Source: Cyclobacteriaceae bacterium (lineage in GTDB: Bacteria > Bacteroidota > Bacteroidia > Cytophagales > Cyclobacteriaceae). From it: 64,000 nt of DNA. The stretch lies in NCBI GenBank assembly GCA_049115735.1, contig JAGDZP010000009.1, positions 36,355 to 100,354 of the forward strand, given 5' to 3'. Of the stretch, positions 8,609 through 61,798 are shown in pieces. Position 1 is the stretch's first letter. Each line of letters opens with the position of its first letter. The notes below the pieces were generated by a model. It was not told where the DNA came from. It searched no databases and saw nothing but the letters and a program-made list of their open reading frames with translations. The position numbers were made by a program, and so were the translations under genes.

Positions 8609-10042
8609 ATGCTTAAATTCCAATACTCTAATGCTGCCTTTTCATACAAGGGAAAAACCGTTGTTTCGGGAGTTAGTTTTGAAGTTGGTGACGGAGTGCA
8701 CATAGGCATTACCGGAAAGGTAGGAAGTGGTAAGACGATGCTTCTGAAAAGTTTAACAGGTATTCTTCCTTTGAAAGAAGGTGAACGATATTTTGAGCAT
8801 GAAGGAAAGGAAATATCAGCCTATGATTTCTCCCTTCTTACAGAATTAGTTGAGTTTTCAGAGCAGAATAAATTCTTCAAGCCAGGGTCTCATTTCTACC
8901 AGCAGCGTTATCAATCTTTAGAAGATGATGAATCCAGAAGCCTTTTAGTGAAAGATTACCTCGAAGCTCGTGGAATGGATTTGAAAGATGAATTCCATGC
9001 TACGATTTTGAGTAAGGGCAGGGTTGATCAGCTTTTTAATAGAAAGCTTATTCACATTTCCAGCGGTCAAAGAAAGCGCATGCAATTGTGTATTGCACTT
9101 TCTAAGAAGCCAAGGCTATTGCTTTTAGATCACCCATATACCGGCATAGATCAGACTACCAGGATAGAACTTGATGAGTGGCTCAACGAGATGTCCGAGT
9201 CGTTTGGGATTCAATTGGTCATTGCGGCTAATGAAAGTGAGCTTCCTTCTTTTGTGAAGAATAAGTTGGTGGTTGGAAGCAAAGGAGATTCGTACGGTGA
9301 TGATCCACAAAATCGGCTGGACCAACTGATTGAAGCCCTTCAACATAAATCTGCTGCAACCTTCAACAGTGCGATAAACATGCAGGGTGTAAACCTCGGC
9401 TATAATAATGTAGAGATCCTTCAGGGCCTGGATTGGCAAGTAGACAAAGGCGATAGGGTAGGCATGAAGGGAGAAAATGGCTCAGGTAAGTCTTCGCTTC
9501 TGAGCCTGGTATACGGCGATAATCCTCTGGCTTATAATAAGGAAATTTATTTATTTGATAAAAAGCGCGGTACAGGAGAGAGTATTTGGGACATTAAGAG
9601 AAATATTGGTTTTGTGTCTTCTGAATTCCACCTCTACATGAGTGATCACATTACCTGTGAGAAGCTCATCGGAACAGGCTATTTCGACCAACTATTTATA
9701 CCCAGAAAATTAAATGAAAAGGAACTCCAGCGCATTGACCTTTTCCTGACTTACTTTGGGGTGATGAGTCTCAAGAGCAGGTACTTTCATGAAATCTCAA
9801 TAGGAGAGCAGCGACTAATTCTTCTCATTCGGGCATTGATCAAAAATCCTCCTTTGCTGTTGCTAGATGAACCCTACCATTGCTTTGATGACGACACCAT
9901 AGAAAAGGCCAATACACTGATTGAGACTTTGATCAATACTTTTCAGAGTACCTTGGTCTTCATCAGTCATAGCGAGGAAGTATTTCCTAAGTCTATCAAC
10001 AAGCGATTTGAACTTATCGATGGTAGGCTCAAATCAATTTGA
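8609..10042 (+). CDS. Tandem-domain ABC ATPase without a membrane domain, ModF-like
   Basis: Two Walker A motifs (GKVGSGKT, GENGSGKS) and two signature-like motifs (SSGQRKRMQLCIAL, ISIGEQRLILLIRAL). 477 aa. No permease gene adjacent. Confidence 0.55.
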   Translation: MLKFQYSNAAFSYKGKTVVSGVSFEVGDGVHIGITGKVGSGKTMLLKSLTGILPLKEGERYFEHEGKEISAYDFSLLTELVEFSEQNKFFKPGSHFYQQRYQSLEDDESRSLLVKDYLEARGMDLKDEFHATILSKGRVDQLFNRKLIHISSGQRKRMQLCIALSKKPRLLLLDHPYTGIDQTTRIELDEWLNEMSESFGIQLVIAANESELPSFVKNKLVVGSKGDSYGDDPQNRLDQLIEALQHKSAATFNSAINMQGVNLGYNNVEILQGLDWQVDKGDRVGMKGENGSGKSSLLSLVYGDNPLAYNKEIYLFDKKRGTGESIWDIKRNIGFVSSEFHLYMSDHITCEKLIGTGYFDQLFIPRKLNEKELQRIDLFLTYFGVMSLKSRYFHEISIGEQRLILLIRALIKNPPLLLLDEPYHCFDDDTIEKANTLIETLINTFQSTLVFISHSEEVFPKSINKRFELIDGRLKSI

Positions 10043-12472
10043 TCCACCACCAACATTACAATACCCCGAACCAATAGGAGATCCGTCTGGGATTTTTGGA
10101 ATCGATGATAATGGAATAGATTTCATTTTCTCTATTTGACCAATGAGGTATTTGTTGAAGATCAAGTTTTCAGAGTTCTCCGAGGTTTTCTGGCTAAGCA
10201 ACTCCTTGATTTCATCAAGCTTAAATTTTACGATAGCATTAACCTGTGGAAGGGTTTTATGGCTTTTAGCCAGGTGAATCATATGATTGATTATATTGAA
10301 TTGAATCAGGTTCTGAACCTCTTGCAAATATGGTTTAGAACTTACGGATAACTTAAATGTGGTGCTAACTATTTCGTCAATGACATCAATCAGCCCAATT
10401 TGACCAGGGTCAAGGCTCTTTTGCTGGATAAGTCTGGACGCTCTTTGCGGATGGAATATGAATCGGAGCGTGATATTACTTGCAGTAGAGGCTGCACTCA
10501 GAGCATCAAAAGAAACTCCTGTTCTACCTTTAAATGATTCTCTAGTTCTGCCATAGGCTATTGCTCTGGGAGGAAAGAGTGCAAGTTTGTTTTCTGGTAT
10601 GGCAAGAACTTCTGGAGACAAAGTTTTTAATATAGTTGATAGAGCTTGTTTCTGAGTAGTTACTTCCACAGGTTCAGATATGATCTGTCCATCACCTTTG
10701 ACAGCATAGTTGTAATCCATTCCACCAATCAGTTTAGCTACTGCTTCAGTTTGATATCTGTGTAGAAAGTATAACGGGACAAATAAATCTTCGAGGATTG
10801 AGTAGGGCTCATTGCTTCGAATATTATCTTCTGAAAAGTTAGCAATGGCAGCCTTGCGTATAGAAAGGAGATTATCTAACTCAGACGAAGCATCAATACC
10901 ATTGTCCCACAAGTGAGCATAAGCATGGGAACCACTGGCAGAGCGTGCATCGTTATCTGAAATGTATCTTAAGCCATCATCTTGAGCCTGAGTCAGGATT
11001 TTGTTCAGCTCAACTCGTTCGTTCTTATTTTCATCGAACTCAGCATAGGAATAGGCAACAGTCACTTTGTCCCATTTGCCCATGCCTGTATCATAGGCAT
11101 TAGAAAAATCAACTTCTCCATTTTTTAGGGATAATTTTGGATGTGGATAATCCATTACAGAAGCTCGGTTGTTCGCGCTAGAAGCAAAGTTGTGACTAAA
11201 GCCAAGGGTATGACCTACCTCGTGTGCTGAGAGTTGCCTTATCCTTGCCAGGGCCAGTTCTAGCATCGCTTGATTGTTATCATCTTGATTAGCAAAGGGT
11301 TTGTTCATAAGTGCCTGGGCAATCAAAAAGTCCTGACGAATCCGTAGACTCCCCAGGCTAACATGGCCTTTTATAATTTCTCCGGTTCGAGGATCGACAA
11401 CACCGTTTCCATAGCTCCAACCCCTGGTAGACCGGTGCACCCATTGAATAACATTATACCTCACATCCATTGGATCCGCATCATGTGGGAGTATTCTTAT
11501 CTGAAAAGCATCTTTATACCCTATGGATTCAAAAGCTTCATTCCACCAGGCAGCACCGTCAAGAAGGGCTGAGCGAATAGGTTCAGGTGTTCCATTATCC
11601 AAATAGTATACAATGGGCTCAATGGCTTCACTTATCGCGGCATTTGGATTCTTCTTTTTCAACCTATGTCTACCTATTACTCTTTTTACGATGGATTCTT
11701 CGACAGGAGCAGAGTAATCCATGTATGACAATGAGAATGAGCCACACCTGGGGTCAAATGCTCTGGGTTCATAGTTGTTATCTGGTAGCTCGATGAACGA
11801 ATGGTGCTCAACAACTGATACCAGGTTAGGATTGGGTGTTACTGACTTAATGTAGCCTCCCTTTGCTTTTCCACTAAATGTCAAAAGAGCTTCAAATTCA
11901 ACATTTTTTGGAAATGCTTTAGTCCGCGTCATTTCCAACGCACTTTTAGAAGGATCAAGTTCGTAATTCCCTTGATCAGCCTCTTTTAATGTATTGATAA
12001 CACCAAAAGTATCCTGAATTAGAAAGTCAGTGATATCAATTAGATGGGCATTTTTTTGACTTTCAAGAATGGGAAATCCAAATAAAACAGACTTGGCAAA
12101 AGCTTGTTCTACTGATAATTTTTCCAATGGATTATCAGAGCTTGCACGGAAATCCATATTTGGCTGGATCAAGAGTAACTTGTTTCCCGATTTTTGAAAG
12201 TAGACAATTTGAGTTTGCCCAAGCTTCCCTCTGTCTAAACCTAAATCATTGCTTCCAATCCCGCTACTCAGAGAATATATGTATATGAACTCCGTATTTA
12301 ATTTGTCTACTTCCAGGAAAATCCGATCCTCATATTCATGGTAGTAAAAGCTAAAGAATCCAGATTGTTTGTCAAGATTCTTAGTTGTCTCAAAAGATTG
12401 ACCATGTGAGAAATTCAATATCGACAAGGATATAAGGAAAAAGAAGGCTATTTTTTTCATAGTATGAGTCAA
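10034..12472 (-). CDS. Secreted zinc-dependent metalloprotease (zincin, HExxH) with a large N-terminal domain
   Basis: Signal peptide MKKIAFFFLISLSILNFSHGQ and HEVGHTLGFSHNF zincin motif. 812 aa. Confidence 0.7.
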   Translation of the reverse strand: MTHTMKKIAFFFLISLSILNFSHGQSFETTKNLDKQSGFFSFYYHEYEDRIFLEVDKLNTEFIYIYSLSSGIGSNDLGLDRGKLGQTQIVYFQKSGNKLLLIQPNMDFRASSDNPLEKLSVEQAFAKSVLFGFPILESQKNAHLIDITDFLIQDTFGVINTLKEADQGNYELDPSKSALEMTRTKAFPKNVEFEALLTFSGKAKGGYIKSVTPNPNLVSVVEHHSFIELPDNNYEPRAFDPRCGSFSLSYMDYSAPVEESIVKRVIGRHRLKKKNPNAAISEAIEPIVYYLDNGTPEPIRSALLDGAAWWNEAFESIGYKDAFQIRILPHDADPMDVRYNVIQWVHRSTRGWSYGNGVVDPRTGEIIKGHVSLGSLRIRQDFLIAQALMNKPFANQDDNNQAMLELALARIRQLSAHEVGHTLGFSHNFASSANNRASVMDYPHPKLSLKNGEVDFSNAYDTGMGKWDKVTVAYSYAEFDENKNERVELNKILTQAQDDGLRYISDNDARSASGSHAYAHLWDNGIDASSELDNLLSIRKAAIANFSEDNIRSNEPYSILEDLFVPLYFLHRYQTEAVAKLIGGMDYNYAVKGDGQIISEPVEVTTQKQALSTILKTLSPEVLAIPENKLALFPPRAIAYGRTRESFKGRTGVSFDALSAASTASNITLRFIFHPQRASRLIQQKSLDPGQIGLIDVIDEIVSTTFKLSVSSKPYLQEVQNLIQFNIINHMIHLAKSHKTLPQVNAIVKFKLDEIKELLSQKTSENSENLIFNKYLIGQIEKMKSIPLSSIPKIPDGSPIGSGYCNVGGGSN

Positions 12473-12675: not shown

Positions 12676-14589
12676 ATGAAAACTTCTTACTTAAAACTTT
12701 CAGTAGTAGCCCTGGTGATCACTTTGATGTCTGGTCTGGCAAATGCTCAGGACGCCATGTGGCAACTTGATTTCGAAAAGGAAATTGTATTTAATGAGAA
12801 TACTGACACTGGTATTCTTTTGGTTGGCACCAGCGACTGGGTGCTTCATGGTATAGACACTCGTGATGGAAATAAGCTTTGGTCGAGTGAAATAATGAAT
12901 GGCGCAAAGCAGGTGAGAGGAGCAGATGGGAAGAAAGTGAATGCTCAACATGCTTTTGATAATTACATCAATATTTTAGAAGACCCGGATTACCCTGAAA
13001 TTTCTGACTTTGTGGAAATTAAGTACAAAGATGGAACAGGCTTATATAAGAATTATGCTGTAATCAACCTTCACACGGGTGAAGAAGTGATGAGCCCAAA
13101 GAAAGCTGAAATGCCTTCTATGAAGATGCTTGGAAAGGAAATGATTACTTTCAATTATAATGGTACAGGTTATGTACCCGCTCTACGAATGATAATTATT
13201 TCTGCGGGTTATGCTGACTTAAAAAATGGTGGAGAATGGGTGAATGTTACTAAAATGGTGGAACTGCCTAGTGCAAAAGTCATTTGGACAAGCAATGATG
13301 TTGCGGTTGATGGTTTCCCTTATGTTATGGAAAATGGTGACATTGTACTTCCGGGTCCTACTCAAATAGCAAGGCTGAATTCCAAAACTGGGGCGGTGAA
13401 ATGGTCTTACAACACAACAAATAAGAAGCAGTTCTTCGTGAGTTTTGACTTAAGTCTGGATTTAACTACTGGTTATTTCTTCGAGAAAAAGAAAAATAGC
13501 GGCGCATTGTCAGCAGTGGATATGGGGTCTGGAACAAAGAAATGGGAGCAAGAATTGAAGCTCAAAGAAGTACCTACTATGTCAGCGATGGGATACGGAG
13601 TTGTAACTATTGATTCGAAAAATTTCAAACTGTATGATTTGGAAAGTGGGTCTGTCAAATGGACTGCCAAGAAAATCGACGGTTATGTAGTAGATCTGGG
13701 AGATAAAGGAATAGCCGCAACATCTAAGGGTAAAAGATTGGTCTTGATGGATAAAGAAACAGGATCAATCATTTGGGATGAAAAAATCTCGGGAATTCAA
13801 ATTGATCAAATTGCTGCAAATGGAATTATGTATTCTGATGCGAAAGGTCGACTTGGTTATATTCAATATGATGGCCAAAAAATTTGGGATAAGAAAGGAA
13901 TGCTTGAAGTTCCTTCTCTAAGATACAAGCCAGAGTTCACCAAGGAAATCATGTTGATCGATGGTGATTTATATGAAATAGATTTGATGACTGGAGATTA
14001 TTCCGTTTTGAAAGCCAAATTAAATAGTGAATTCGGAGGTGGCAAAGATGCTGCTCCAACCAGCGTTGAATTAGTTGATGGTGGATACTTATTCACAGAC
14101 GCACAAAACCTTGTTATGCTTGAGACTGACGGGTCTGTTCGATTTAAGAATTACTGGGAAGCACCCGGCCTAAGCATGGCCGCAAAAATTGCCCTAAGAG
14201 TAGGTCAGGCAGCTGCCATTGCAATGGCTGCAAGTTCAGCCATGGAATCGAGCCGACATAGAGGGCCATACGGAGGAGATACTTATTATAGTAAAATGTA
14301 TGCTCAACAAGCAGACGATTGGGCCAATATCGCAGGTATGGCAGGAGCAGCTACTAAGCAGAAGTTTAGTGCAACAGTGTCCAAAGGAAATATCAGGATG
14401 ATCCTTACCAGAGTCGGTGAGGGTGGACAAGGAAAAAGTTCTGGTATTGTGAAAGTAGACAAGAGGACCGGTGAAGAGCTTGGATCTTTGCTGCTAGGAG
14501 ATAAAAAACCAGTATATGATTATGACCCAGTGTCTGGGCAGGTTTTCTTCAAGGCCGAAAATAAGACAATCATTAGCTACAGCTTATAA
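12676..14589 (+). CDS. Secreted protein with PQQ-like beta-propeller repeats
   Basis: Signal peptide (LANAQ) and repeated G-x-x-K/I-W-S/T motifs (GNKLWSS, GAVKWSY, GSVKWTA, GSIIWDE) as in BamB/PQQ propellers. Confidence 0.45.
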   Translation: MKTSYLKLSVVALVITLMSGLANAQDAMWQLDFEKEIVFNENTDTGILLVGTSDWVLHGIDTRDGNKLWSSEIMNGAKQVRGADGKKVNAQHAFDNYINILEDPDYPEISDFVEIKYKDGTGLYKNYAVINLHTGEEVMSPKKAEMPSMKMLGKEMITFNYNGTGYVPALRMIIISAGYADLKNGGEWVNVTKMVELPSAKVIWTSNDVAVDGFPYVMENGDIVLPGPTQIARLNSKTGAVKWSYNTTNKKQFFVSFDLSLDLTTGYFFEKKKNSGALSAVDMGSGTKKWEQELKLKEVPTMSAMGYGVVTIDSKNFKLYDLESGSVKWTAKKIDGYVVDLGDKGIAATSKGKRLVLMDKETGSIIWDEKISGIQIDQIAANGIMYSDAKGRLGYIQYDGQKIWDKKGMLEVPSLRYKPEFTKEIMLIDGDLYEIDLMTGDYSVLKAKLNSEFGGGKDAAPTSVELVDGGYLFTDAQNLVMLETDGSVRFKNYWEAPGLSMAAKIALRVGQAAAIAMAASSAMESSRHRGPYGGDTYYSKMYAQQADDWANIAGMAGAATKQKFSATVSKGNIRMILTRVGEGGQGKSSGIVKVDKRTGEELGSLLLGDKKPVYDYDPVSGQVFFKAENKTIISYSL

Positions 14590-14611: not shown

Positions 14612-14673
14612 TAAGTCCGTGGTTGGTGATATCAAGGTCATTAATGACTGTTGACCATCGATCACGGACTTAC
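14612..14673 (+). promoter_or_regulatory. Long perfect inverted repeat (10-bp arms TAAGTCCGTG/CACGGACTTA) enclosing a second palindrome GTCATTAATGAC, located between convergently unrelated genes
   Basis: Read directly from the sequence. No T-tract follows, so it could be a terminator-like hairpin or an operator for the downstream WD40-caspase gene. Confidence 0.4.
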
Positions 14674-14696: not shown

Positions 14697-17600
14697 ATGA
14701 ACAGACTTATATTATTATGCCTGATACCAGTCACACTCTTTGCTCAGCAAGCGGAACTTGTCATTCGTCAGGGGCACAAAGAGGAGATCAATATGGTCAA
14801 ATATTCGCCCACAGGCGCACATATTTATTCAGCTAGTGATGATAAGAGCATCAAAATGTGGGACGTGAATACTGGTATTGACGTCAGTACATTTAATGCC
14901 CATGAAGCCGGAGTAAATTGTATAGATCTGTCCAAAGATGGTAAAACATTGATTTCAGGTGGAAAAGATGGAAAGATAATAATCTGGGACACCTCTACCG
15001 GGAATGTGCTAACCTCGATTGAGGGTCATGAGGGAAGTGTGAATACTGCCAAACTTTCGGCAGATGGCCAAATGATTGTGTCTGGAGGAGAGGATGAAAT
15101 AGTTCGATTATGGAATATTAATGGAGACAGTATAAAATCTGTCCGTGGATTTAGTGCTCCTATTACTAATCTCGCAATATCACCAGATGGTGAGAGAATA
15201 GTTACAGGAGGAGGCAAAAACAATGCTCCTGAAGTTAAGCTGATAGATACTGAAAAAGGTATGATCATAGCAGATGCTCTAGACAATGTAAAGGGGTCTG
15301 GAGCAGCTCTTGCTTATACTAAGGTGATCATGACAGGGTTTGCGGTGGTTGGCAATGTGGCAAATGGAAGGATAGGAAAGGGGATGACCACAATTTTTGT
15401 AATGAAATATTCTAATATAGAATTTACTAATGATGGGAAGAAGATACTCTTTTCAATGAACATCTATACACCGTTTATTGCAGCAAAGGGTGAAGAGGAA
15501 GATACGGGTAATGCAAGTGTCATGATAGCCTCACTTTCTGAAGATAGAAATCAATTTGCAGCTATGAAAAAACCAGTTCAGTGGCAATTGAATAACTCCA
15601 GAGGTGTAGCGGTTTACAATAAGGATCAAACAAAGGTTATAGTAAATGAAGCCAGATCAGTGGTTGTCTACGATGTGGCGGATGCTAATTTCCCTGAGGC
15701 TGGAAATAAAGAAGCCGTGAAATATGTACCACCGATTGTTCAGGAGATAAAAAACATCACCAAGAATACAAACTGGTTAGCTCTTTCACCAGATTATCGT
15801 ACAGTAGTCACTTCTGATGTTAACCGTGAAATGAAATTATATGACTTTGAATCTGGTAGAAAAATACGGGATTTACAAGGTTATGTGCAGCCTGCACTGG
15901 CTGTTGATGTTATGCCAGATGGCAAGCACATTTTGGTCGGTTCGGCAGATCGAAATATGACAATGTGGGATATTACCTCCGGTCAAATGGTTCGATCTTT
16001 TGAAAGAACACCCAACATCAATAGTATAGACATCTCAAAAAGTGGAAAAGGAATAGCAACAACCGAATTGAATTCCTTGTACCTAAAGGTATGGAATGTA
16101 ACATCTGGCAGGGTAACAAAGTCTCTAATGGAGAAAAAGGATGGAATGGATTGGATAAAATTCGATCCGAGTGATAACGATAAAGTCTGGACCCATACGA
16201 CAAGTGGAGAAACTAAAGAATGGTCATTGAGTGCCAGAAAAAACAAGAAATTAAAAGTGGATTACTCCACACTGGAGGACAAGTTCAAGACTGGAGACTT
16301 CAGTGTGACTTTTGATGCCTATGATTTAAGTGTAAAAAAAGGTGGTTCTGAACTTTTCTCAGATACTCAAAGTGGTATTATAACTGATGCAGTTTTCAGT
16401 AAAGACCTTAAACTTTTAATCACTACCAATGAAACAGGTGAAATAGCCTTATATGACCTGAACACAAAGAAAAGAGCAGCGACAATGGCACTTATTGGAG
16501 AAGGTGAATTTATAACCTTTACTCCTGACTTCTATTATACATCCTCCAAGGGAGCTGCTAAAGCGATAGCATTTAAAACATCGAATAAAATTTTGCCTGT
16601 TGAGCAATTGGAGTTGAAGTATAACAGACCGGATTTAGTTGTAAGCCGAATTGGATATGCTTCCCTCAAATTGATTGCTTCGTACAAAGCGGCTTATGAA
16701 AGAAGGATCAAACGACTGGGTTTTAGCGAGTCAGATCTGACAAACAACCTTGAAGTGCCAGAAGTTTCGATAAATGCTTCGGCACTCCCTTTAGAAACAG
16801 ATCAAAGGCCAATTTCATTTACAATAAAAGCAAAGGACGCAAGCAGTACAATCAAAAGTTTACAAGTGTATGCTAATGATGTTCCGGTATTTGGCTCAAA
16901 AGGTATTGATGTATCTGGCCTGTCATCTAAGGAGGTTTCCAAAGATGTAACCTTCGATTTGTCAGCAGAATTGAATGAAATAAAAGTAACAGCAATAAAC
17001 GCGAAAGGACAAGAGTCTATCCCAGAGTTTTTCGAGATTCAGTATACGGCCGAATGGGACAAACCGGATCTTTATATTGTAGCTGTTGGAGTGTCTGAAT
17101 ATCAGCAATCCAATTACAACCTGGCTTTTGCAGCTAAAGACGCAAATGATATCATAAATACCCTAAAAGGATCCAGCGCTTATGGAAATGTCAATGTCAA
17201 GTTGATAACTAATGAACAGGCAACCTCAGACAATATTAAGTCTATTAGATCATTTGTTGAAAGTGCCAAGGTAGATGATGTCGTAATGATTTTTATTGCC
17301 GGTCATGGAGTATTGGACAATGACTACAACTATTATTTTGCAACGCATAATATAGATTTTAGCAACCCTGCCAATGGTGGTCTTCCGTATGGAGAGCTGG
17401 AAAGAATAATCGATGGATTGAATTGCCGCAATAAATTGTTAATGATGGATACCTGCCATTCGGGGGAACTTGACGATAATGACGTAGAGGAAGCTACGGC
17501 TCAAACAAAAGCCGTCGGGTCAGTGTCTTTCCGTTCAGCTGGAGCATTGGTTAAACTAAAAGAAAATAGTTTTGGACTTGAAAATACATTAGAGTTATCC

Positions 17601-17885
17601 AAAGCACTTTTTGGTGACATGAAGAAAGGAACTGGTGCGACTGTTATTTCTGCGGCAGGTGGAACTGAATTCGCCGCTGAAGGTGTAAATTCTTCTAATG
17701 GTTTGTTTACAGGTAGCTTTATCGAAGGAATAAAAACACGTTACGCTGATTGGAATCGCGACAGGGCTTACACTGTATCAGAAATGAGAAATTTCGTAAG
17801 TAAACAGGTAATAAAGAAAAGTAGAGGAAATCAGGTACCTACCTCCAGAGAAGAGAATATTAAAAATGATTTTAGGCTTTATTGA
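14697..17885 (+). CDS. Signal-peptide-bearing WD40 beta-propeller protein fused to a caspase-like (peptidase C14) domain
   Basis: N-terminal signal peptide (CLIPVTLFAQQ) and multiple WD40 units (GGKDGKIIIWDTSTG, IVRLWNINGD, MTMWDITSGQ, LKVWNVTSGR). The caspase domain shows the IFIAGHG (His-Gly) and MMDTCHSGE (Cys) catalytic dyad signatures. An Ig-like stretch lies before the caspase domain. Confidence 0.75.
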   Translation: MNRLILLCLIPVTLFAQQAELVIRQGHKEEINMVKYSPTGAHIYSASDDKSIKMWDVNTGIDVSTFNAHEAGVNCIDLSKDGKTLISGGKDGKIIIWDTSTGNVLTSIEGHEGSVNTAKLSADGQMIVSGGEDEIVRLWNINGDSIKSVRGFSAPITNLAISPDGERIVTGGGKNNAPEVKLIDTEKGMIIADALDNVKGSGAALAYTKVIMTGFAVVGNVANGRIGKGMTTIFVMKYSNIEFTNDGKKILFSMNIYTPFIAAKGEEEDTGNASVMIASLSEDRNQFAAMKKPVQWQLNNSRGVAVYNKDQTKVIVNEARSVVVYDVADANFPEAGNKEAVKYVPPIVQEIKNITKNTNWLALSPDYRTVVTSDVNREMKLYDFESGRKIRDLQGYVQPALAVDVMPDGKHILVGSADRNMTMWDITSGQMVRSFERTPNINSIDISKSGKGIATTELNSLYLKVWNVTSGRVTKSLMEKKDGMDWIKFDPSDNDKVWTHTTSGETKEWSLSARKNKKLKVDYSTLEDKFKTGDFSVTFDAYDLSVKKGGSELFSDTQSGIITDAVFSKDLKLLITTNETGEIALYDLNTKKRAATMALIGEGEFITFTPDFYYTSSKGAAKAIAFKTSNKILPVEQLELKYNRPDLVVSRIGYASLKLIASYKAAYERRIKRLGFSESDLTNNLEVPEVSINASALPLETDQRPISFTIKAKDASSTIKSLQVYANDVPVFGSKGIDVSGLSSKEVSKDVTFDLSAELNEIKVTAINAKGQESIPEFFEIQYTAEWDKPDLYIVAVGVSEYQQSNYNLAFAAKDANDIINTLKGSSAYGNVNVKLITNEQATSDNIKSIRSFVESAKVDDVVMIFIAGHGVLDNDYNYYFATHNIDFSNPANGGLPYGELERIIDGLNCRNKLLMMDTCHSGELDDNDVEEATAQTKAVGSVSFRSAGALVKLKENSFGLENTLELSKALFGDMKKGTGATVISAAGGTEFAAEGVNSSNGLFTGSFIEGIKTRYADWNRDRAYTVSEMRNFVSKQVIKKSRGNQVPTSREENIKNDFRLY

Positions 17886-17934: not shown

Positions 17935-18726
17935 ATGAAAGCGAGACTTCTATTATTGACTGTTTTGATTGCCGCAGCATTAGGCGCAAACGCACAGACC
18001 TATACAGTCATTCACGCTATTGGTAAGATATACGAATCAAAGAGTGGGAAATACCTGACCAAAGGAATGAGGCTAAGCGAAAGTGCTGAGTTAAAATTTG
18101 AAACTTCAGGTGCAAAGGCCGCCGTGCTCAGCTCCAAGAGAGGGCGTTTTGTGATACAAGAGAAATCTAGTAGTTCATCTGGCCAGGGGGAATTAGCTTA
18201 TGCACTAGCTGCAGTACTTTCTCCAGCAAGAGGTCGATTGAGTACAAGGGCAGGGGGTATCAACAATCAGCTTGATTTTCAAAAGAAATTTGGGGAAGGA
18301 CCAGTTGCTATTGTAGGCGATGAATATAAAGTTGCTGTGTCTCCAACGGCCTATCCGATGAGCGACAACAAGTTTTTCTATGCGAGCTACTCGTACAATG
18401 GAGAGCCAATCAATAAGAAACTTTCGAGAGACGGGGATTCACTGGTTTTTGATGTACCTGCATTCTACTCAGTAGATGACAAGCCAATAGATCCTACAAC
18501 TACATCAGATACTAAACTGTTTTATTACAATGCTGGTGCGCAGGAGTCCACTCTTATTACAGCCTTGGAATTATCAATCATTACCAAGGACGATCTGAAG
18601 TCTATTGTAGAGAGTTTAGCTGATTTGCCTGCAGAAGAGAAGAAAAACTTTGTACTGGAGATCGTCACTGAGTTTTATGGCAAATGCTCTGATGATGATG
18701 TGGAAAAAGCCCTTAACAGCTTGTAA
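17935..18726 (+). CDS. Secreted hypothetical protein (263 aa)
   Basis: Signal peptide AALGANAQ. No recognisable motif. Co-directional with and tightly spaced after the WD40-caspase gene. Confidence 0.45.
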   Translation: MKARLLLLTVLIAAALGANAQTYTVIHAIGKIYESKSGKYLTKGMRLSESAELKFETSGAKAAVLSSKRGRFVIQEKSSSSSGQGELAYALAAVLSPARGRLSTRAGGINNQLDFQKKFGEGPVAIVGDEYKVAVSPTAYPMSDNKFFYASYSYNGEPINKKLSRDGDSLVFDVPAFYSVDDKPIDPTTTSDTKLFYYNAGAQESTLITALELSIITKDDLKSIVESLADLPAEEKKNFVLEIVTEFYGKCSDDDVEKALNSL

Positions 18727-18735
18727 ACTCAGTTT

Positions 18736-19134
18736 ATGTCTGATAGTTATATCATTGAGCAGGCTGTCAAGCTAAAAGAGGAAGGCTATGATTTTGGAAA
18801 GATCAGAGCTTACCTGAGCAATGCAGGCCACTCCAATGATGACATCAGTTCTGTTTTTAAAATCATGGATGAACGGGAAATTCATGATCTTCAATTCAAT
18901 CAGCGACTCAATACGGCAAGGGTGCAATTGATAGCCTCTCTTGTACTGACATGCGCCGGTGTGATATACAATTTGTACAGGTTTGGGCTAGAAGACAAAA
19001 TAGACTTTATCATATTATTGATACCCCTGTCAATTTTTGTCGCAGCATATTATTCCTTCAAGTCGATAAGGGCCAAAAGATATACTGCCAAAAGTATTCT
19101 ATTTGAAAACTTTGGAAGGAAACATAGGGAATAA
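18736..19134 (+). CDS. Small membrane protein with a cytoplasmic N-terminal helical domain and 2 TM
   Basis: 132 aa. Hydrophobic segments LIASLVLTCAGVIYNLY and FIILLIPLSIFVAAYY. 9-nt spacing from the previous gene. Confidence 0.4.
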   Translation: MSDSYIIEQAVKLKEEGYDFGKIRAYLSNAGHSNDDISSVFKIMDEREIHDLQFNQRLNTARVQLIASLVLTCAGVIYNLYRFGLEDKIDFIILLIPLSIFVAAYYSFKSIRAKRYTAKSILFENFGRKHRE

Positions 19135-19144
19135 ATAAGAGCGA

Positions 19145-20320
19145 ATGAAAATCAAAAAGATTTTTTTGGGAGTAGGGATTGTAGCTAATGCATTGATCAT
19201 GGTCTTCTTTGCTTTGTACCTAATGAAGCTGCCCTGGCTGGCTGGTGACGAAAAGTTCCTAATATGGAGTTCGTCGGCCATAAAGTTCAACAATAGGGAT
19301 ATGCCCAGCTCCGATGAGTTTGCTTTCATAAATACATCCTACGATCTCCAGCTAATAGACCGATTTGACGAGTTTGGCTTTCCTGTGGGCAATCAGGTGA
19401 TTACTGACAGGCAAAAACTGGGTATGCTAATGGACATACTTGCTTCAGGGGAGAAGAAACCGAAGTATGTTATATGTGATATTCACTTTGTGGATTCTAC
19501 AGATTTTGACAAGGAATTGCATGCTGCCTTGCGTAAGATGGACAACATCATACTCTCCTCTCATTTGAATGATAGCGGGATGGTAGATGTGCCTATTTTT
19601 AATGATATCAACAGAGGGCTATCAGATTATGTGATCGGAAGCATTTTCGATGGAGTGTATAAGTATCAGCTTTTTTATCAGGATACTTTGAAGCTTACTC
19701 CACTTAAGGTGCACGAGAAACTTTCTGGGGAAAAGGCAGAAATTATGGGGCCACTCGTGAAAATAGGTGATAGATGGACACTCAATAATTTTATCATGAA
19801 CTACAGGGTGGTGCAAAAGGATATATTAGATATGGAAGCCGGCTTCAATCCCGTTAGTCTTGGAGAGTTGCTGTTTTTGGAAGATAAGGACATACAGGAT
19901 TTTACGGCGGACAAAATAGTAGTGATAGGAGATTTCTTCGAAGCAGATATGCATGAGACACTTTTTGAAATCACCGCCGGGCCACTCATCCTTATCAATG
20001 CTTACCTCACGATCAAAGAGGGTGATGCTGTGGCAAACATTTGGTTCTTTTTCATTGTATTTGCCGTCTTTCTCTACTTAAGCTATATGGTATTTGTAGA
20101 GGGGGACTACATGGAAAAAAAGATAACCAAACTATTCGGCACGATAGCCATAGCTAAATACCTCGCAGGATTCGCAAGCTATATAACCATTCTGGCGCTA
20201 TTGTCGCTTCTTACTTTTTTCCTTTTCCACATACACCTAAATATCTTTTTCCTGGCAGTTGCATTTTACCTTATGGATAAGATTGTTGGATTTATTTACA
20301 GCAAAACCAAAAATTCGTAA
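19145..20320 (+). CDS. Membrane protein with CHASE2-like topology (N-terminal TM, ~270-aa extracytoplasmic domain, C-terminal 3-4 TM) and no output domain
   Basis: Topology read from hydrophobicity (IVANALIMVFFALYL, then a C-terminal TM cluster). The CHASE2 assignment is by architecture only. Confidence 0.35.
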   Translation: MKIKKIFLGVGIVANALIMVFFALYLMKLPWLAGDEKFLIWSSSAIKFNNRDMPSSDEFAFINTSYDLQLIDRFDEFGFPVGNQVITDRQKLGMLMDILASGEKKPKYVICDIHFVDSTDFDKELHAALRKMDNIILSSHLNDSGMVDVPIFNDINRGLSDYVIGSIFDGVYKYQLFYQDTLKLTPLKVHEKLSGEKAEIMGPLVKIGDRWTLNNFIMNYRVVQKDILDMEAGFNPVSLGELLFLEDKDIQDFTADKIVVIGDFFEADMHETLFEITAGPLILINAYLTIKEGDAVANIWFFFIVFAVFLYLSYMVFVEGDYMEKKITKLFGTIAIAKYLAGFASYITILALLSLLTFFLFHIHLNIFFLAVAFYLMDKIVGFIYSKTKNS

Positions 20321-56734: not shown

Positions 56735-59700
56735 TTAGCGCAACAAATAAAGCTTGCCAAAACCATTCTTGAACGCCTGGTCCGAAGATGTAGATCTATG
56801 CGTAATCTCCTTGCCATTGTTCTTAAGATAGACTTTGTACAAATACACACCGTTGGCGAGCTGATCTCCAAACTCATCTTTGCCATCCCAGGCATAGTCA
56901 GTAATGTTGTTTCCTATCCTAATGTTTCCAAGCTCCTGCATAAATATTTCACGAACCACCCTTCCAGTCACGGTCATTATTTGAATCTTGATATCATCCG
57001 GAATGTCATTTCCGGTGAGGGTAAACACAAACTTCGTGCTAGAGCTGAATGGGTTAGGGTATGGATAGAAATTGGTGATGGTTGATTCGTTGATTACCTC
57101 GAAATTGATTTCATAAGGTTCTGTGCCGGATTCATTACCTGTTTCGTCACTGGCCTGCACACTAAGCGTATACATTCCATTGGCTAGGTTTCCCGGATTG
57201 AAGTCTATTTCAAAGTCCTGATCTTCACTGGCAGCCACCCATGTAATCTCCGGGCTACTCAATGCCACGCGCTCAAAATCACAACCGTCACAGGGTCGCC
57301 TTAGGGAAATGTTGATACCGGTGGTATCATCTTTAAAAAGGTATTCATTCTCATCTTTCATCGATACCTTGATTTGCGGATTGGGTGAAACAATATCCCC
57401 ATCCATAATGAATACACCATCAAAAGAAACTTCTAAAATAGGATTGGACTGGTCGTCTGATACATTGAAGAAATCCGTAATTCTCAGATTGTTGTTGTTG
57501 ATGTGGACTTCTTTCTGATCGGTTTGAATTTTCATGATCAGGTCATTGGTACCGACTCGGTCAAGCGTTTGAATGTCAATATCGAAGTTCACCGAATCTC
57601 CGGCATTTAGCGCCTGCAATTTTAGTGAGTCCGCATACAGGACAGAGGTTTCCTGATTGAATACCTGAAAATTAAGTTTTACAGAATCTGCATAGTTTTT
57701 CTTTGAGACATTCCAGTAGGTGAATTCGCTTCTGAATTCCTGACCTTCTTGCCTCGAAATGGAAGTTTCTATGCCGGAATTATCTCTTTTCAGCAAGATG
57801 CCCTCAGGAGCATGCTCATAAACGATAGACCAGCTTTGGAGCTGAGATGGCGATAAGTCTACTTTGTCCTCCAGGTCCAATTTCAATCGAAGATATGGAT
57901 ATGTATTGGCATCAATACTAGAAATATCTAATGAAGCGTCTTGTACATGTTCAAATAGCAGCACTTCATTATTTTGTAGATCAACTCCATAAATTGAAAA
58001 GTCAAAAACTTCAGAATCGTTATTATTCGCTATGTCAATCTCACTTTTGAAAGTATCATAGGATAAAGCCGGTCCAATGATCTCTGAGGTCAGGTTACCA
58101 CTGAAAAAGCTCCCTGATATTGTAGATAACAAATTTAACTCCTGTTCTCCCTTTGGTGCTTCCAGCGCAAGCAATTGCGTTGCGCTTCCCTGTGGGCTGC
58201 CCTTGCTGCCATAAAAAATAATTGGTTCTCCATCTTCCAATCCATCAATAGTACTTTGGTTTATACCTAGATTAACCAATTTGTCTTTCAGTGTTGTGGG
58301 CCATGTGGAGTAGTTCAAAGTACCCAATGAAAATATCAGCACATTGTCCCTGTCTTTGATGTTGTCAAGAATCACTTCGGGATTGATACCACTACCAAAT
58401 TCACTTTCTGTGAAGTTGTGAATCGCCTGAGGAACTTTGCCGCACACCCTATTATTAAGTACATCTGCTTGTCCGAAATTCACAGGCTTGTATGGAACTG
58501 TGGATTGGTAGTCGAAAGGTACAATGTTGAGTGTGTTGTTTCTGCATCCAGGGTCGGCAGGGGCATTGGTTTCGTAGAAGTTAATTCCATCCAAAAATAG
58601 CTCAACGTCCTGGTAATTCTTTGACGGGTGTGTTGGGCCGAATGTATTGATTTGCAGCGATGTGTTGTTGGAAAGAAAATCCCACACGCCATTGGTGGCA
58701 TCATAAGTCAGCCCAGAGCTTTGTGCTTCGTCTAGTTGATCACTGTGTGCTTGAATCCAGCCTTCATCTGCATCCTGAAGTACAAATGAACTTGTCACCC
58801 AGTCATCGATTTCTGATGGCAAGGGGTTGGCAAATTTAGTTCTCCAAAAAATAGCTGTGCCCGAGGGAAGTGCCCCCTCTTGTTCCAGATCAATGCTTGC
58901 TTTCGTTACCACATGTTCAGTGAATGATCTTTGAATCAGATAGTCCGAATCAAAACTTGCGGCAGTATCAATTTCTATCAAAAATTCACGTCGACCAGAT
59001 AGTAAATCCGTTGCTTGGAAATAGAAATCAACTGTTCCCTGGTTTTCTATCGAGTTGTCCTGTGGCAGAATATTGAAGGTGCTTCCGGTGGCCAGGAATA
59101 TCTCAACTTTTACCGAATTGTTAGTTTCATCAAGCTCGTCAATATTATCGGCCTCATCCAGAATTATTTCAAAGGTGTTATTTCCTGCTACCTCTTCAAG
59201 CTGATTGTTAATGTTGAATCTTAAAGTGTCTTGCCGTAAGATTGGGTCATACTCAAGAGGACCATATTCAATTTCACTGCCATTGGGTAGTGTCCTTTTT
59301 ATGGTTACGAAAAATGGTTCAGCACTATACTTACCATAATTTTTGACATCAATGTCAAAATAGAAAGAATCAACAGCCGCCAGTAAAGGAGAGGATGTGT
59401 AAGTCTCCGTGGTTAGATTTTCTTCCACGATATCCAAGTCAGGTTTCTCAGCACCAAATACTTTTATCGCTGGGTCTCCCTGCATAACAAATTGCTGAAT
59501 TTGCGAAGCACTGAAGAAATTATCACCGTAATTGACCTGGTATCTTCGCGCAATTTCTTGCCTGATCTTGCCAAGAGACTGGGCGAAGAAATTCTCGTCA
59601 GCATAAGCTACTTCATAAAACAGTTTGCTATAGTTTCTAAGATTACCGGAGAAGGCTATACTACTATGGGCCATAAAGCCCAATGCTCCCAGATCAGGTG

Positions 59701-61798
59701 TTAATATCCAATCAATACCAAACGATTCACCAGTACCAAAGAAATCCCCAGCGTTACAACCATTGACCAAAAAGATTGGATACCTACCTTTGTTGTCATA
59801 CCCAAATGCTGGATCGGAAACAATTCCAACTTCGATATCGGTAACACTCGCTCCCGAATGACCGAAGAAGGTGATGAGGCTTACTCCTTCGTTTATTTCT
59901 TTGGTTATGTTGATGAATTCAACAGCATCGTTCGTTTTTTTGCTTGTTTTTGTCACCGAGGCACCCATAAGTGGTCCTGTTGCAATTTGTTCAAACTGCT
60001 CACCAAATCGTTGAAAAGTAACAAGTTCGGCCTCATTTTGCCCACCGGTGAGGTGGATGATGTTTTTATGCCAAAGGTCATTATACACCAGGCTTTCACT
60101 TTCTATTACCTTATTCAAATATGCCTGTACATCATCAGGAGTTTTTGCATTAATTCTTCCCGTTGGAATAGCCTCATCGAGTTTGGTTCCATTCAATCCT
60201 GCTGAGAAAGCAGCATCAGACCCAGGCTCTCCGAAAGTAGGGACGAAGTTTGTTGTAGCGGTTGTGGGATCACGCCTGAAGTAATTGTAACTATTGTTGG
60301 TAGCCCTGCCAATCAAAAACAAGTATTCAGGCTGGCCTGTTGAAAGTAGGAAATCACACAATCTGCGCACAGCAATAGGGGAGGTAAGTCCGTAGTTGAA
60401 CTGGTTATACACCTCGTCAATATTCAAAAGCAATACATTGTGCGATCCACCCGGTGCGCTTTCCCGATAGTCTTTGTAAGCATTTACCGGATCTGCCGAG
60501 CCGTTGGTAGTGTTTCCTCTCAGAAGCTTGTTACTTATAATAGTAAAATTGTAATCAGCCGGATCAATTTCGGTAAAAGTCACACTTTTGATTGATGCAG
60601 GTGAATGGAGTTCTGATTCTAAAGCCAGTGTTCGTGAAGCGGTTGTGTTCGAAACAATGGCTGTCAATTCCTGAAATGTGCTGTTGTACTCTATTTCTAC
60701 AGGGTTGCTTGATTGAGTGATATCCCAAATTCTACTATCCGCAGGAGGGTTCGATATTCGAATGAAAGATTTGTCTTGAACATTTATAGGTAATTCTATT
60801 TTCTCCTCAGTCAGTCCTGATAAGTCATAAGTCCTTGGATAAACCAATCGAATATGGGAAATGGCCTGTCTATCTGCAAACCCGTCTACGCCATTTACAG
60901 TTACTCTCACAGCCAGCTCTCCTCCGGATGATATATCACTCCATTCAATTTCCGAGCTAAATAGAAAATTTTCATCCCCATTAAAGGTGGCTGTTCCGAT
61001 ACTCCGTAAAGAACCTGTCGATTGACCAACGAATAATTCCGCACTATGCTGGTTATTATTACCACTGGCCAGAAGAATTTCGATGCTGGGTTTGCTACCG
61101 GTTGTAAAGCGATTGTCGATGTTTTGTATGAGGTGGTCTATAGAATTTCCCCTCGTTGCAAAGTTTCCTGTCCAACCTTCGGCAGCATCATACTGACTCA
61201 GTACAACATCATTACTAAACCCATAGCTTCTTCCTTCATGGTAGTTGTTGGTGAACAGTGCGACTATTTCCTTGTTGTAGCTCGGTTCGTCAGGCAGGTT
61301 GTCCACATTGTTCTCAAAGAAGGAGGTCATTCTAAGGCCAGTCTCCGCTGATAACTTATAGGTGAGGAAGTAAGCGGAGGTATCCGAAAATAGGTTATAG
61401 TAGGTATTCGGTTGATAGCCGGGTTCGATGTATAAATCTGTATCCGACGAACCATCGTTTCTTTGTCCATAGAATTCGAGATAGTCAGCTGGATCAAACT
61501 TACCATCCTGCTGTCCTTCGATAGTGATAGCTTGTTCTGTACCTTTGTAGAACAGCTGAACCCTTCTTGGATCTATCGAGCCGACTGGAATACCAGCATT
61601 GCTTAAATCATCATAGGTTATCCTGTGAATACCATTCTCAATTACTTCAATTTTAACGTATTGTTGGTTAAAGTCGATCCATTCATTGCCAAAGTTTTGA
61701 GCTATAGACTGATCGCAAATTATAGTGCTCAGCAGAAGCAATGCGAATAGTTTTATTCGGCTAACTTTATTTAATATCACCTTATTCCTTCTTGTCAT
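56735..61798 (-). CDS. Giant secreted clan-CD (C25 gingipain-like) peptidase-domain protein with a T9SS type-A C-terminal domain; PorU-like
   Basis: Signal peptide. The FFGHSGAS ... LVNGCNAGDF His-Gly/Cys dyad spacing matches clan CD. Near the C-terminus, NFYPYPNPFSSSTKFVF ... GVYLYKVYL is the TIGR04183-type CTD pattern, followed by an extra ~25-aa tail. Confidence 0.5.
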   Translation of the reverse strand: MTRRNKVILNKVSRIKLFALLLLSTIICDQSIAQNFGNEWIDFNQQYVKIEVIENGIHRITYDDLSNAGIPVGSIDPRRVQLFYKGTEQAITIEGQQDGKFDPADYLEFYGQRNDGSSDTDLYIEPGYQPNTYYNLFSDTSAYFLTYKLSAETGLRMTSFFENNVDNLPDEPSYNKEIVALFTNNYHEGRSYGFSNDVVLSQYDAAEGWTGNFATRGNSIDHLIQNIDNRFTTGSKPSIEILLASGNNNQHSAELFVGQSTGSLRSIGTATFNGDENFLFSSEIEWSDISSGGELAVRVTVNGVDGFADRQAISHIRLVYPRTYDLSGLTEEKIELPINVQDKSFIRISNPPADSRIWDITQSSNPVEIEYNSTFQELTAIVSNTTASRTLALESELHSPASIKSVTFTEIDPADYNFTIISNKLLRGNTTNGSADPVNAYKDYRESAPGGSHNVLLLNIDEVYNQFNYGLTSPIAVRRLCDFLLSTGQPEYLFLIGRATNNSYNYFRRDPTTATTNFVPTFGEPGSDAAFSAGLNGTKLDEAIPTGRINAKTPDDVQAYLNKVIESESLVYNDLWHKNIIHLTGGQNEAELVTFQRFGEQFEQIATGPLMGASVTKTSKKTNDAVEFINITKEINEGVSLITFFGHSGASVTDIEVGIVSDPAFGYDNKGRYPIFLVNGCNAGDFFGTGESFGIDWILTPDLGALGFMAHSSIAFSGNLRNYSKLFYEVAYADENFFAQSLGKIRQEIARRYQVNYGDNFFSASQIQQFVMQGDPAIKVFGAEKPDLDIVEENLTTETYTSSPLLAAVDSFYFDIDVKNYGKYSAEPFFVTIKRTLPNGSEIEYGPLEYDPILRQDTLRFNINNQLEEVAGNNTFEIILDEADNIDELDETNNSVKVEIFLATGSTFNILPQDNSIENQGTVDFYFQATDLLSGRREFLIEIDTAASFDSDYLIQRSFTEHVVTKASIDLEQEGALPSGTAIFWRTKFANPLPSEIDDWVTSSFVLQDADEGWIQAHSDQLDEAQSSGLTYDATNGVWDFLSNNTSLQINTFGPTHPSKNYQDVELFLDGINFYETNAPADPGCRNNTLNIVPFDYQSTVPYKPVNFGQADVLNNRVCGKVPQAIHNFTESEFGSGINPEVILDNIKDRDNVLIFSLGTLNYSTWPTTLKDKLVNLGINQSTIDGLEDGEPIIFYGSKGSPQGSATQLLALEAPKGEQELNLLSTISGSFFSGNLTSEIIGPALSYDTFKSEIDIANNNDSEVFDFSIYGVDLQNNEVLLFEHVQDASLDISSIDANTYPYLRLKLDLEDKVDLSPSQLQSWSIVYEHAPEGILLKRDNSGIETSISRQEGQEFRSEFTYWNVSKKNYADSVKLNFQVFNQETSVLYADSLKLQALNAGDSVNFDIDIQTLDRVGTNDLIMKIQTDQKEVHINNNNLRITDFFNVSDDQSNPILEVSFDGVFIMDGDIVSPNPQIKVSMKDENEYLFKDDTTGINISLRRPCDGCDFERVALSSPEITWVAASEDQDFEIDFNPGNLANGMYTLSVQASDETGNESGTEPYEINFEVINESTITNFYPYPNPFSSSTKFVFTLTGNDIPDDIKIQIMTVTGRVVREIFMQELGNIRIGNNITDYAWDGKDEFGDQLANGVYLYKVYLKNNGKEITHRSTSSDQAFKNGFGKLYLLR

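Follow-up and report, generated by a model that had tools for sequence, protein, structure and literature searches.

What would a bacterial caspase homologue do if it were exported, and with which partners would it act? The question is raised by a gene at positions 14697..17885 (+ strand) of a 64,000-nucleotide stretch of contig JAGDZP010000009.1 from a Cyclobacteriaceae bacterium (GenBank assembly GCA_049115735.1), which is called the window below. A preliminary description, made from the DNA letters, had presented the gene product as an exported fusion of WD40 repeats with a caspase domain (hereafter, the WD40-caspase) and, by implication, as an unusual exception among bacterial proteins of this kind. 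The reading we favor, at a probability of roughly 0.6, is that the product is a Sec-exported, periplasmic, Arg/Lys-specific C14 protease that works with a CHASE2 membrane protein in regulated envelope proteolysis. Domain content, catalytic residues, signal-peptide features, and synteny are established, and from them we infer compartment, specificity, autoprocessing, and the roles of partners.

The open reading frame (ORF) was present exactly as described, running from an ATG through 1062 codons (1062 aa) to a stop codon in the ORF listing and translation. A Pfam scan placed both parts of the fusion above their gathering cutoffs: WD40 (PF00400) matched in four stretches (E 1.5e-43, 145.8 bits vs. 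a cutoff of 27), and Peptidase_C14 (PF00656) matched residues 796-1056 (E 2.7e-13, 50.6 bits vs. a cutoff of 21.4), covering model positions 6-229 of 233. Together with an AlphaFold2 model, the latter match delimits a caspase/metacaspase-type domain at aa 792-1062 (nt 17070..17882, +). By motif and alignment, the catalytic dyad consists of His870 in IFIAGHG (nt 17304-17306, +) and Cys920 in DTCHSGE (nt 17454-17456, +). In a single-sequence search of the PDB, IAGHG fell on SGHG and DTCHSG on DSCHSG of Arabidopsis metacaspase-4 (AtMC4, 6w8s), and a profile built from 17 caspase-domain sequences matched 6w8s (E 3.7e-4), Geobacter GSU0716 (3bij), and yeast Yca1 (4f6o). All three profile alignments set the dyad motifs on the known catalytic motifs, the Cys motif of Yca1 lying at the edge of the aligned region, so the claim of an intact dyad stands.

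We aligned 37 full-length homologues (26-82% identity) and, separately, searched a library of 1.84 billion proteins with the caspase domain alone (residues 785-1062), counting matches as cluster representatives; the window protein together with 149 of the 150 closest representatives forms a set of 150 sequences. His870, Gly871, Cys920, Asp918, Asp861, and Asp815 are invariant in the 37 homologues, and the same six residues are invariant in the 150 sequences. The WD40-caspase is thus predicted, from sequence, to be an intact caspase-type cysteine protease that is catalytically competent.

The same alignments bear on specificity. Against both 6w8s and 4f6o, the tripeptide K-D(815)-A falls on the metacaspase 'N-D' motif and Asp918 on the Asp of DxCHSG, two motif positions that we take to be S1-pocket residues of metacaspases. 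Two conserved Asp residues line this specificity pocket (PMC6426788). Because Asp815 and Asp918 match the presumed acidic-pocket positions, they are candidates for an acidic S1 pocket in the WD40-caspase, and cleavage after Arg or Lys is predicted. A possible target for such cleavage lies within the protease itself. Metacaspases and orthocaspases are generally described as autoprocessed between their p20 and p10 regions, and here these regions are joined by a linker modeled as disordered (aa 922-962, nt 17460..17582, +; predicted local distance difference test [pLDDT] 23-37) that carries a conserved Arg946. Position 946, in the motif G-x-V-x-F-R, is Arg or Lys in 36 of 37 homologues, and Arg is at least 90% conserved there in the 150 representatives, making Arg946 a candidate autoprocessing or activation site.

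The N-terminus has the features of a Sec/signal peptidase I signal peptide. The predicted peptide, MNRLILLCLIPVTLFA (aa 1-16, 14697..14744, +), would be cleaved before Gln17 and divides into a basic n-region (MNR, with Arg3), a hydrophobic core of 12-13 residues (LILLCLIPVTLF; best 10-residue Kyte-Doolittle window 2.86), and an Ala16-Gln17 site (A, then QQ). All 37 homologues have a hydrophobic core followed by Ala, Gly, or Ser and then Gln, ∼3-5 residues before the first conserved strand (ELIIRQGH), and 36 of the 37 have a basic n-region. The leader sequence itself is not conserved among these homologues and Gln17 is nearly invariant; maintenance of the three-part pattern while the sequence varies is what is expected of a signal peptide. 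Gln at +1 is moreover the 'Q-rule' of Bacteroidetes signal peptidase I substrates (PMC5837995, PMC10653852). The claim of a Sec signal peptide and an extracytoplasmic protein is therefore supported by features found in every homologue, as scored by a heuristic of our own, with the periplasm as the best reading.

The periplasm is most probable because the protein combines a signal peptide with neither of two further export signals. There is no C-terminal sorting-domain model of the type IX secretion system (T9SS) among the NCBIfam matches of the WD40-caspase, whose C-terminus is instead the caspase fold, and no lipobox was found at the N-terminus, where Cys8 falls within the hydrophobic core (LILLC) and is not preceded by a small residue at -1. 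The mature protein, which contains three Cys in 1046 residues (homologue median, 0.29%), is most probably a soluble or partner-tethered periplasmic protein, as judged from these sequence features.

Export of this kind is not peculiar to the window protein. The caspase-domain search returned 24,370 representatives at E <= 1e-3 and 2,908 at E <= 1e-30. In the closest 150, whose caspase domains are 43-66% identical to the query, most proteins are ∼1000-1500 residues long and the caspase domain is C-terminal in nearly all. Among the 135 of these that begin with Met, a signal-peptide-like N-terminus was scored in 113 by a strict form of the heuristic and accompanied by the Q motif in 110, and several of the negatives resemble signal peptides by eye. 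The corresponding counts for long ORFs of the window, used as a control, were 14 of 46 and 9 of 46; those nine are mostly other evident secreted proteins, with one transporter as a false positive. Because most of the closest 150 combine a C-terminal caspase with a signal peptide, exported propeller-caspases appear from their sequences to be common in Bacteroidota. Elsewhere in the window, a 1687-aa ORF (56735-61798, -) and an adjoining 372-aa ORF (61782-62900, -) both have signal-peptide-plus-Q N-termini.

The claim of rarity consequently fails. Besides the 2,908 representatives at E <= 1e-30, an identical protein (100%) is present in the protein database as 'MAG: caspase family protein [Cyclobacteriaceae bacterium]' (MAG, metagenome-assembled genome), so the WD40-caspase was already annotated at family level, and such proteins appear in earlier literature (PMC3501461, PMC3914696). 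The WD40-caspase is one more member of a very large, annotated, and functionally unstudied family and does not represent a new kind of protein. The related statement that bacterial WD40-caspases are usually cytoplasmic applies to the cyanobacterial and STAND-type proteins that have been studied; in Bacteroidota it does not hold, given the 113 of 135 representatives with signal-peptide-like N-termini. Literature searches found no biochemical, structural, or genetic study of exported Bacteroidota propeller-caspases and no biochemical study of close relatives of the WD40-caspase.

The protease is the terminal part of a larger architecture. In the AlphaFold2 model, which was built on the 37-sequence alignment (mean pLDDT 82.7, predicted template modeling score 0.72), the predicted order is signal peptide, two β-propellers, helical linker, β-sandwich, and C-terminal Peptidase_C14 domain; the signal-peptide region appears as an N-terminal helix of low pLDDT. 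What had been described as several WD40 blades does include WD40 repeats but is actually two full propellers. The first (aa ∼19-345, nt 14751..15731, +) is supported by Pfam WD40 and propeller matches over residues 19-190, AlphaFold2, and Foldseek; its blades 1-4 are canonical WD40 and the later ones divergent. The second (aa ∼347-635, nt 15735..16601, +) is supported by AlphaFold2, with pLDDT mostly 85-94, and Foldseek. Many propeller-family Pfam models also match the N-terminal part of the protein, and a Foldseek comparison of the full-length model with the PDB returned tandem WD40 double propellers (2ymu, E 3.9e-34; Pwp2/Utp proteins; Apaf-1) over 640-850 alignment columns, confirming the twin-propeller part. 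Only WD40 double propellers were returned by this full-length query, with nothing on the caspase part.

Between propellers and protease, the model places a helical linker (aa 639-673, nt 16611..16715, +; helices 639-642, 645-652, and 657-673) and an all-β unit (aa 689-783, nt 16761..17045, +) of β-strands only at pLDDT 80-92, which is predicted where the preliminary description had proposed an Ig-like spacer. The motif EQLxLKYNRPD precedes the linker. Its residues N643, R644, P645, and D646 do not vary among the 37 homologues, and their conservation in the 150 representatives is at least 90%. The unit conserved family-wide is accordingly larger than the caspase domain: in the 150-sequence consensus it starts near residue 610 and takes in EQ-x-x-LKYNRPD, the helical linker, and the β-sandwich. 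Propeller 1 also has an inserted Ala/Gly-rich helix (aa 194-222, nt 15277-15362, +; AlphaFold2) that is conserved among orthologues. A compositionally similar Ala-rich segment occurs in the propeller protein encoded upstream (aa ∼497-525, window ∼14164-14250). These Ala-rich elements of the two propeller proteins may be plug, membrane-contact, or pairing elements.

More than any other result, the conserved neighborhood hints at the function of the caspase. A scan of species-representative genomes gave 33 related loci, nearly all from Reichenbachiella, Ekhidna, and 'Cyclobacteriaceae' MAGs (marine Cytophagales), with full-length identities mostly of 54-83%, and these were searched by tblastn with the proteins encoded around the window gene. 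A secreted BamB-like propeller protein encoded upstream, a secreted 263-aa orphan protein encoded downstream (g263), and a CHASE2 membrane protein each accompany the caspase gene in 29 of the 33 loci, and all three do so in 28 (Reichenbachiella, Ekhidna, and related MAGs), in the order propeller, caspase, g263, CHASE2. What we add to the existing annotation is this four-gene module, kept across Reichenbachiella and Ekhidna. It is single-copy, with no paralogues of the module proteins found by tblastn against the window, and syntenic across genera, and GC content across the caspase locus (0.37-0.41) is the same as in the remainder of the window. The WD40-caspase is also 83% identical in the nearest genome, compared with 81% for the housekeeping protein PntB; conservation equal to that of PntB speaks for a cellular function that is maintained and against a mobile accessory.

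The upstream partner is a 637-aa secreted PQQ/BamB-like β-propeller protein (12676..14589, +; Pfam PQQ_2, E 4e-17) with a signal peptide ending in ANA before Gln and no cysteines; BamB models in NCBIfam stayed below threshold. In 29 of the 33 loci, including a partial one, its gene directly precedes the caspase gene. The possibility that this protein is a paralogue of the WD40-caspase was considered and rejected, as BLASTP found no real similarity between the two.

Downstream of the caspase gene, spacings are short (49, 9, and 10 bp from the caspase gene onwards). The first gene encodes g263 (17935..18726, +), a protein with a signal peptide and a highly conserved loop, SPARGRLSTRAGGINN (aa 96-111, nt 18220-18267, +), that is predicted to be disordered and contains an Arg; P97, S103, T104, and R105 are invariant. 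As g263 is encoded beside a predicted Arg/Lys-specific protease, the loop is a candidate cleavage site. A motif pattern in g263 suggested a FecR-like N-terminal domain, an idea that was dropped because 31 aligned members gave no Pfam FecR match. The next gene encodes g132 (18736..19134, +), a predicted membrane protein of 132 aa with hydrophobic segments toward the C-terminus (63-81 and 85-111). By tblastn it had no counterpart in any of the 33 related loci, and the two closest relatives lack an equivalent ORF; its insertion between g263 and CHASE2 is peculiar to this genome among these loci.

The module ends with a stand-alone CHASE2 membrane protein of 391 aa (19145..20320, +), assigned to CHASE2 through an identical NCBI entry (100%), 'CHASE2 domain-containing protein'. 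About half of its orthologues, including some that are 77-79% identical, carry a precomputed PF05226 match, and this stand-alone CHASE2 clade is at the edge of the PF05226 model. A hydropathy scan gave a single hydrophobic segment at the N-terminus and a cluster at the C-terminus, as would suit a transmembrane (TM) helix, an extracytoplasmic domain, and three further TM helices. Because the protein ends a few residues past its last hydrophobic segment, it is without a cytoplasmic output domain. Scans of the g263, g132, and CHASE2 genes with Pfam, NCBIfam, and PADLOC gave nothing usable.

Outside the module, the flanks differ among loci, PntB and an ABC ATPase being common only to three of the closer relatives. 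A secreted Met-zincin (DUF4953 and DUF5117; window 10034-12472, -) is transcribed divergently from the module. It was found in none of the related loci and so is probably unrelated to the module.

A link between such caspases and CHASE2 also occurs beyond the clade. In a MAG of Yeosuana sp., a genus that we take to belong to Flavobacteriaceae, a full-length homologue 27% identical to the WD40-caspase adjoins a CHASE2 gene; at 8899-10850 of that locus, the CHASE2 gene overlaps a gene for a 258-aa signal-peptide protein, and three Peptidase_C14 or CHAT genes and an IS1595-family transposase gene lie nearby. The 258-aa protein and g263 share short motifs (KGM.I near the N-terminus and EFYGxCS near the C-terminus). 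Homology between the g263 family and the 258-aa protein was considered and is unsupported (hhalign probability 6.6%).

Taken together, these observations lead us to favor the following sequence of events. The WD40-caspase would be exported by Sec and cleaved by signal peptidase I before Gln17, and the mature protein would be a zymogen-like single chain. Its two N-terminal β-propellers would form a platform on which substrates or partners dock, joined by the conserved helical linker and β-sandwich to the C-terminal protease, which may be activated by cleavage in the disordered 922-962 loop, likely at Arg946. The two flanking partners (the propeller protein and g263) carry signal peptides, and the sensor domain CHASE2 is extracytoplasmic. 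The CHASE2 protein would be the inner-membrane anchor or gate for the protease, g263 its substrate or regulator through the conserved Arg-containing loop, and the BamB-like propeller a co-factor. A more specific proposal is that the four genes form an undescribed extracytoplasmic caspase pathway, in which an Arg/Lys-specific caspase, kept in the periplasm on its twin-propeller platform and recruited or gated by the output-less CHASE2 protein, cleaves g263 within the loop SPARGRLSTRAGG with the BamB-like propeller as co-factor. We regard this version as speculative and doubtful. If true, it would mean proteolytic signaling or envelope-triggered self-destruction wholly outside the cytoplasm, possibly common to thousands of Bacteroidota propeller-caspases.

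Several points weigh against the reading of a periplasmic protease working with CHASE2. The signal peptide was scored by our own heuristic and not by a trained predictor, and the location is predicted from sequence. The roles of the partners are drawn from gene adjacency only, and the window copy of CHASE2 gave no direct Pfam match even at E <= 10. Four distant members of the family have no CHASE2 neighbor within ±8-9 kb and have unrelated genes around them, so the link with CHASE2 is recurrent rather than universal and may hold only for some clades. Membership of the upstream propeller gene in a common transcript is also in question: the 107-bp spacer that separates it from the caspase gene contains a strong hairpin (14612..14672, +; RNA fold -33.5 kcal/mol, z-score -4.28, 0 of 200 shuffles as stable) with no T-tract after it, which may be a terminator, a processing site, or a repeat element, and the two genes may thus not be co-transcribed. 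A scan for sigma-70 promoters and terminators gave counts near the shuffled expectation; the sigma-70 promoter model is a poor fit for Bacteroidota promoters. Finally, nothing was found that points to a specific physiological role, and envelope signaling, quality control, defense or cell death, and protein maturation may all be considered.

One of these roles is the basis of the rival explanation that survives best, namely that the protein is a conflict or programmed-cell-death effector (abortive infection or kin-killing) acting on the periplasmic side after CHASE2 senses envelope damage or a foreign signal. Such an effector would resemble the caspases of EACC1, EACC2, CATRA, or gasdermin systems, and the best NCBIfam model is indeed caspase_w_EACC1 (80 bits); the PADLOC 'caspase' model also matches (E 3.5e-10), and caspase-CHASE2 fusions occur in EACC2 conflict systems (PMC8195603). 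The clusters of Psychroflexus torquis and Yeosuana, moreover, contain several caspase or CHAT paralogues, the former on a genomic island and the latter with a transposase gene. However, the EACC1-type match is far under its cutoff of 140, the PADLOC matches are generic only, and Pfam, NCBIfam, and PADLOC scans found no EACC, NTPase, TRADD-N, or gasdermin-like partner nearby. The single-copy occurrence of the module, its synteny across genera, its housekeeping-like conservation, and its host-like GC content are also at odds with this explanation, and the caspases described in such systems are cytoplasmic, lying N-terminal to the CHASE2 TM helix. We thus consider a cell-death effector unlikely, with some chance of being correct.

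Somewhat less probable is a secreted or cell-surface protease, analogous to other clan-CD enzymes of the phylum, with a digestive or processing task, be it nutrient acquisition or the maturation of adhesins or gliding proteins. Extracytoplasmic clan-CD proteases are well established in Bacteroidota, other examples being gingipains, PorU, and C11 peptidases, and this precedent, the signal peptide, and the secreted Met-zincin neighbor would all suit such a protease. Against it, the C-terminus is a caspase fold with no T9SS C-terminal domain, there is no lipobox, and the Met-zincin is found in none of the related loci. A propeller scaffold of ∼620 residues and a conserved CHASE2 neighbor fit a regulated, partner-directed enzyme better.

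A third explanation questions export itself: the N-terminal stretch could be an uncleaved signal anchor or an annotation artefact, leaving the protein membrane-tethered or cytoplasmic like the cyanobacterial WD40 orthocaspases. The use of a heuristic leaves room for this, and Asplund-Samuelsson et al. could not separate N-terminal TM helices from signal peptides (PMC3501461). In the window protein, however, a core of 12-13 residues is too short to span a membrane or serve as a membrane anchor, and all 37 homologues have a small residue followed by Gln. No ATG precedes the start codon within the ORF, homologues start at the same place, and cysteine content is very low. An anchor or artefact is accordingly quite improbable. 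The last explanation, a non-catalytic scaffold (pseudo-orthocaspase) that acts through partner binding only, is scarcely credible, because although such proteins exist in bacteria, the known variants have Tyr and Ser in place of His and Cys (PMC6426788), whereas the dyad (His870 and Cys920) and the two candidate S1 Asp residues never vary among the 150 family representatives.

The interest of the locus lies in where it falls relative to existing work. Studies of bacterial caspase homologues have mostly dealt with functions inside the cytoplasm (cell death in cyanobacteria, fusions to STAND/NACHT, and proteases linked to gasdermins or CRISPR). The exported Bacteroidota propeller-caspases are a different and very large group, for which this locus provides a clean core-genome example. 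Its conserved neighbors are concrete, testable partners and a possible route into CHASE2 function. The value of the locus is as a tractable model module, for instance in Reichenbachiella or Ekhidna strains available in culture, and not as the discovery of a new kind of protein.

Among known systems, the cyanobacterial orthocaspases (MEROPS C14, clan CD; e.g., Microcystis MaOC1 and Trichodesmium TeMC9) share with the WD40-caspase a p20-type fold, a His-Cys dyad in SGHG/DxCHSG, frequent fusion to WD40, and, as far as it can be predicted from the alignment, an acidic S1 pocket with Arg/Lys specificity. WD40 is the domain most often found joined to caspase homologues in prokaryotes (Asplund-Samuelsson et al. 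2012, PMC3501461). The domain order of the cyanobacterial orthocaspases, however, is caspase and then WD40 (TeMC9 has a C-terminal WD40, and Metacaspase-NACHT-WD40 is a common order), whereas here the caspase is at the extreme C-terminus after two propellers and a β-sandwich, with a predicted cleavable Sec signal peptide and no NTPase domain. The same survey noted that for most of 98 membrane-class caspase homologues the N-terminal TM helices 'might in fact be a signal peptide', and 30 more homologues were classed as extracellular (PMC3501461).

Another parallel is found in the same phylum. Genomic island GI-15 of P. torquis carries four large WD40 metacaspases beside a CHASE2 gene, with signal-peptide genes flagged (Feng et al. 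2014, PMC3914696), and thus shares with the window large WD40-repeat metacaspases, an adjacent CHASE2 gene, and putatively secreted genes; the Yeosuana cluster resembles it as well. The P. torquis cluster was read as tied to programmed cell death and a possible algal interaction (PMC3914696). The P. torquis genes, however, are on a 35-kb transposase-flanked island with several caspase paralogues, whereas the module here is a compact four-gene unit with a single caspase, syntenic across genera. Among curated NCBIfam models, the best match of the WD40-caspase is NF047832, 'caspase, EACC1-associated type' (E 1.5e-22, residues 795-950), but at 80.1 bits against a cutoff of 140 it is not a member of that family, and no EACC1 partner gene is among its neighbors.

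CHASE2 proteins have other documented associations. In BiofilmReg of Burkholderia and a related two-gene operon of P. aeruginosa PAO1, a secreted FecR/LysM protein is encoded with a CHASE2 histidine kinase (PMC5192318), and as in the module, the gene for a signal-peptide protein lies directly upstream of that for the CHASE2 membrane protein. These gene pairs suggest that CHASE2 works with periplasmic partner proteins, although g263 has no FecR or LysM similarity, and the module has a protease and a CHASE2 protein without a kinase. Caspases themselves are coupled to the CHASE2 extracytoplasmic sensor in the caspase-CHASE2 fusions (an orthocaspase of Trichodesmium erythraeum and EACC2-caspase-CHASE2; Kaur et al. 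2021). In the T. erythraeum fusion, the caspase is N-terminal to the first CHASE2 TM helix and hence cytoplasmic, so that CHASE2 is the input and the caspase the intracellular output. The module described here differs in that caspase and CHASE2 are separate proteins, the CHASE2 protein is without cytoplasmic output, and the caspase is predicted to share the periplasmic side of the membrane with the CHASE2 domain.

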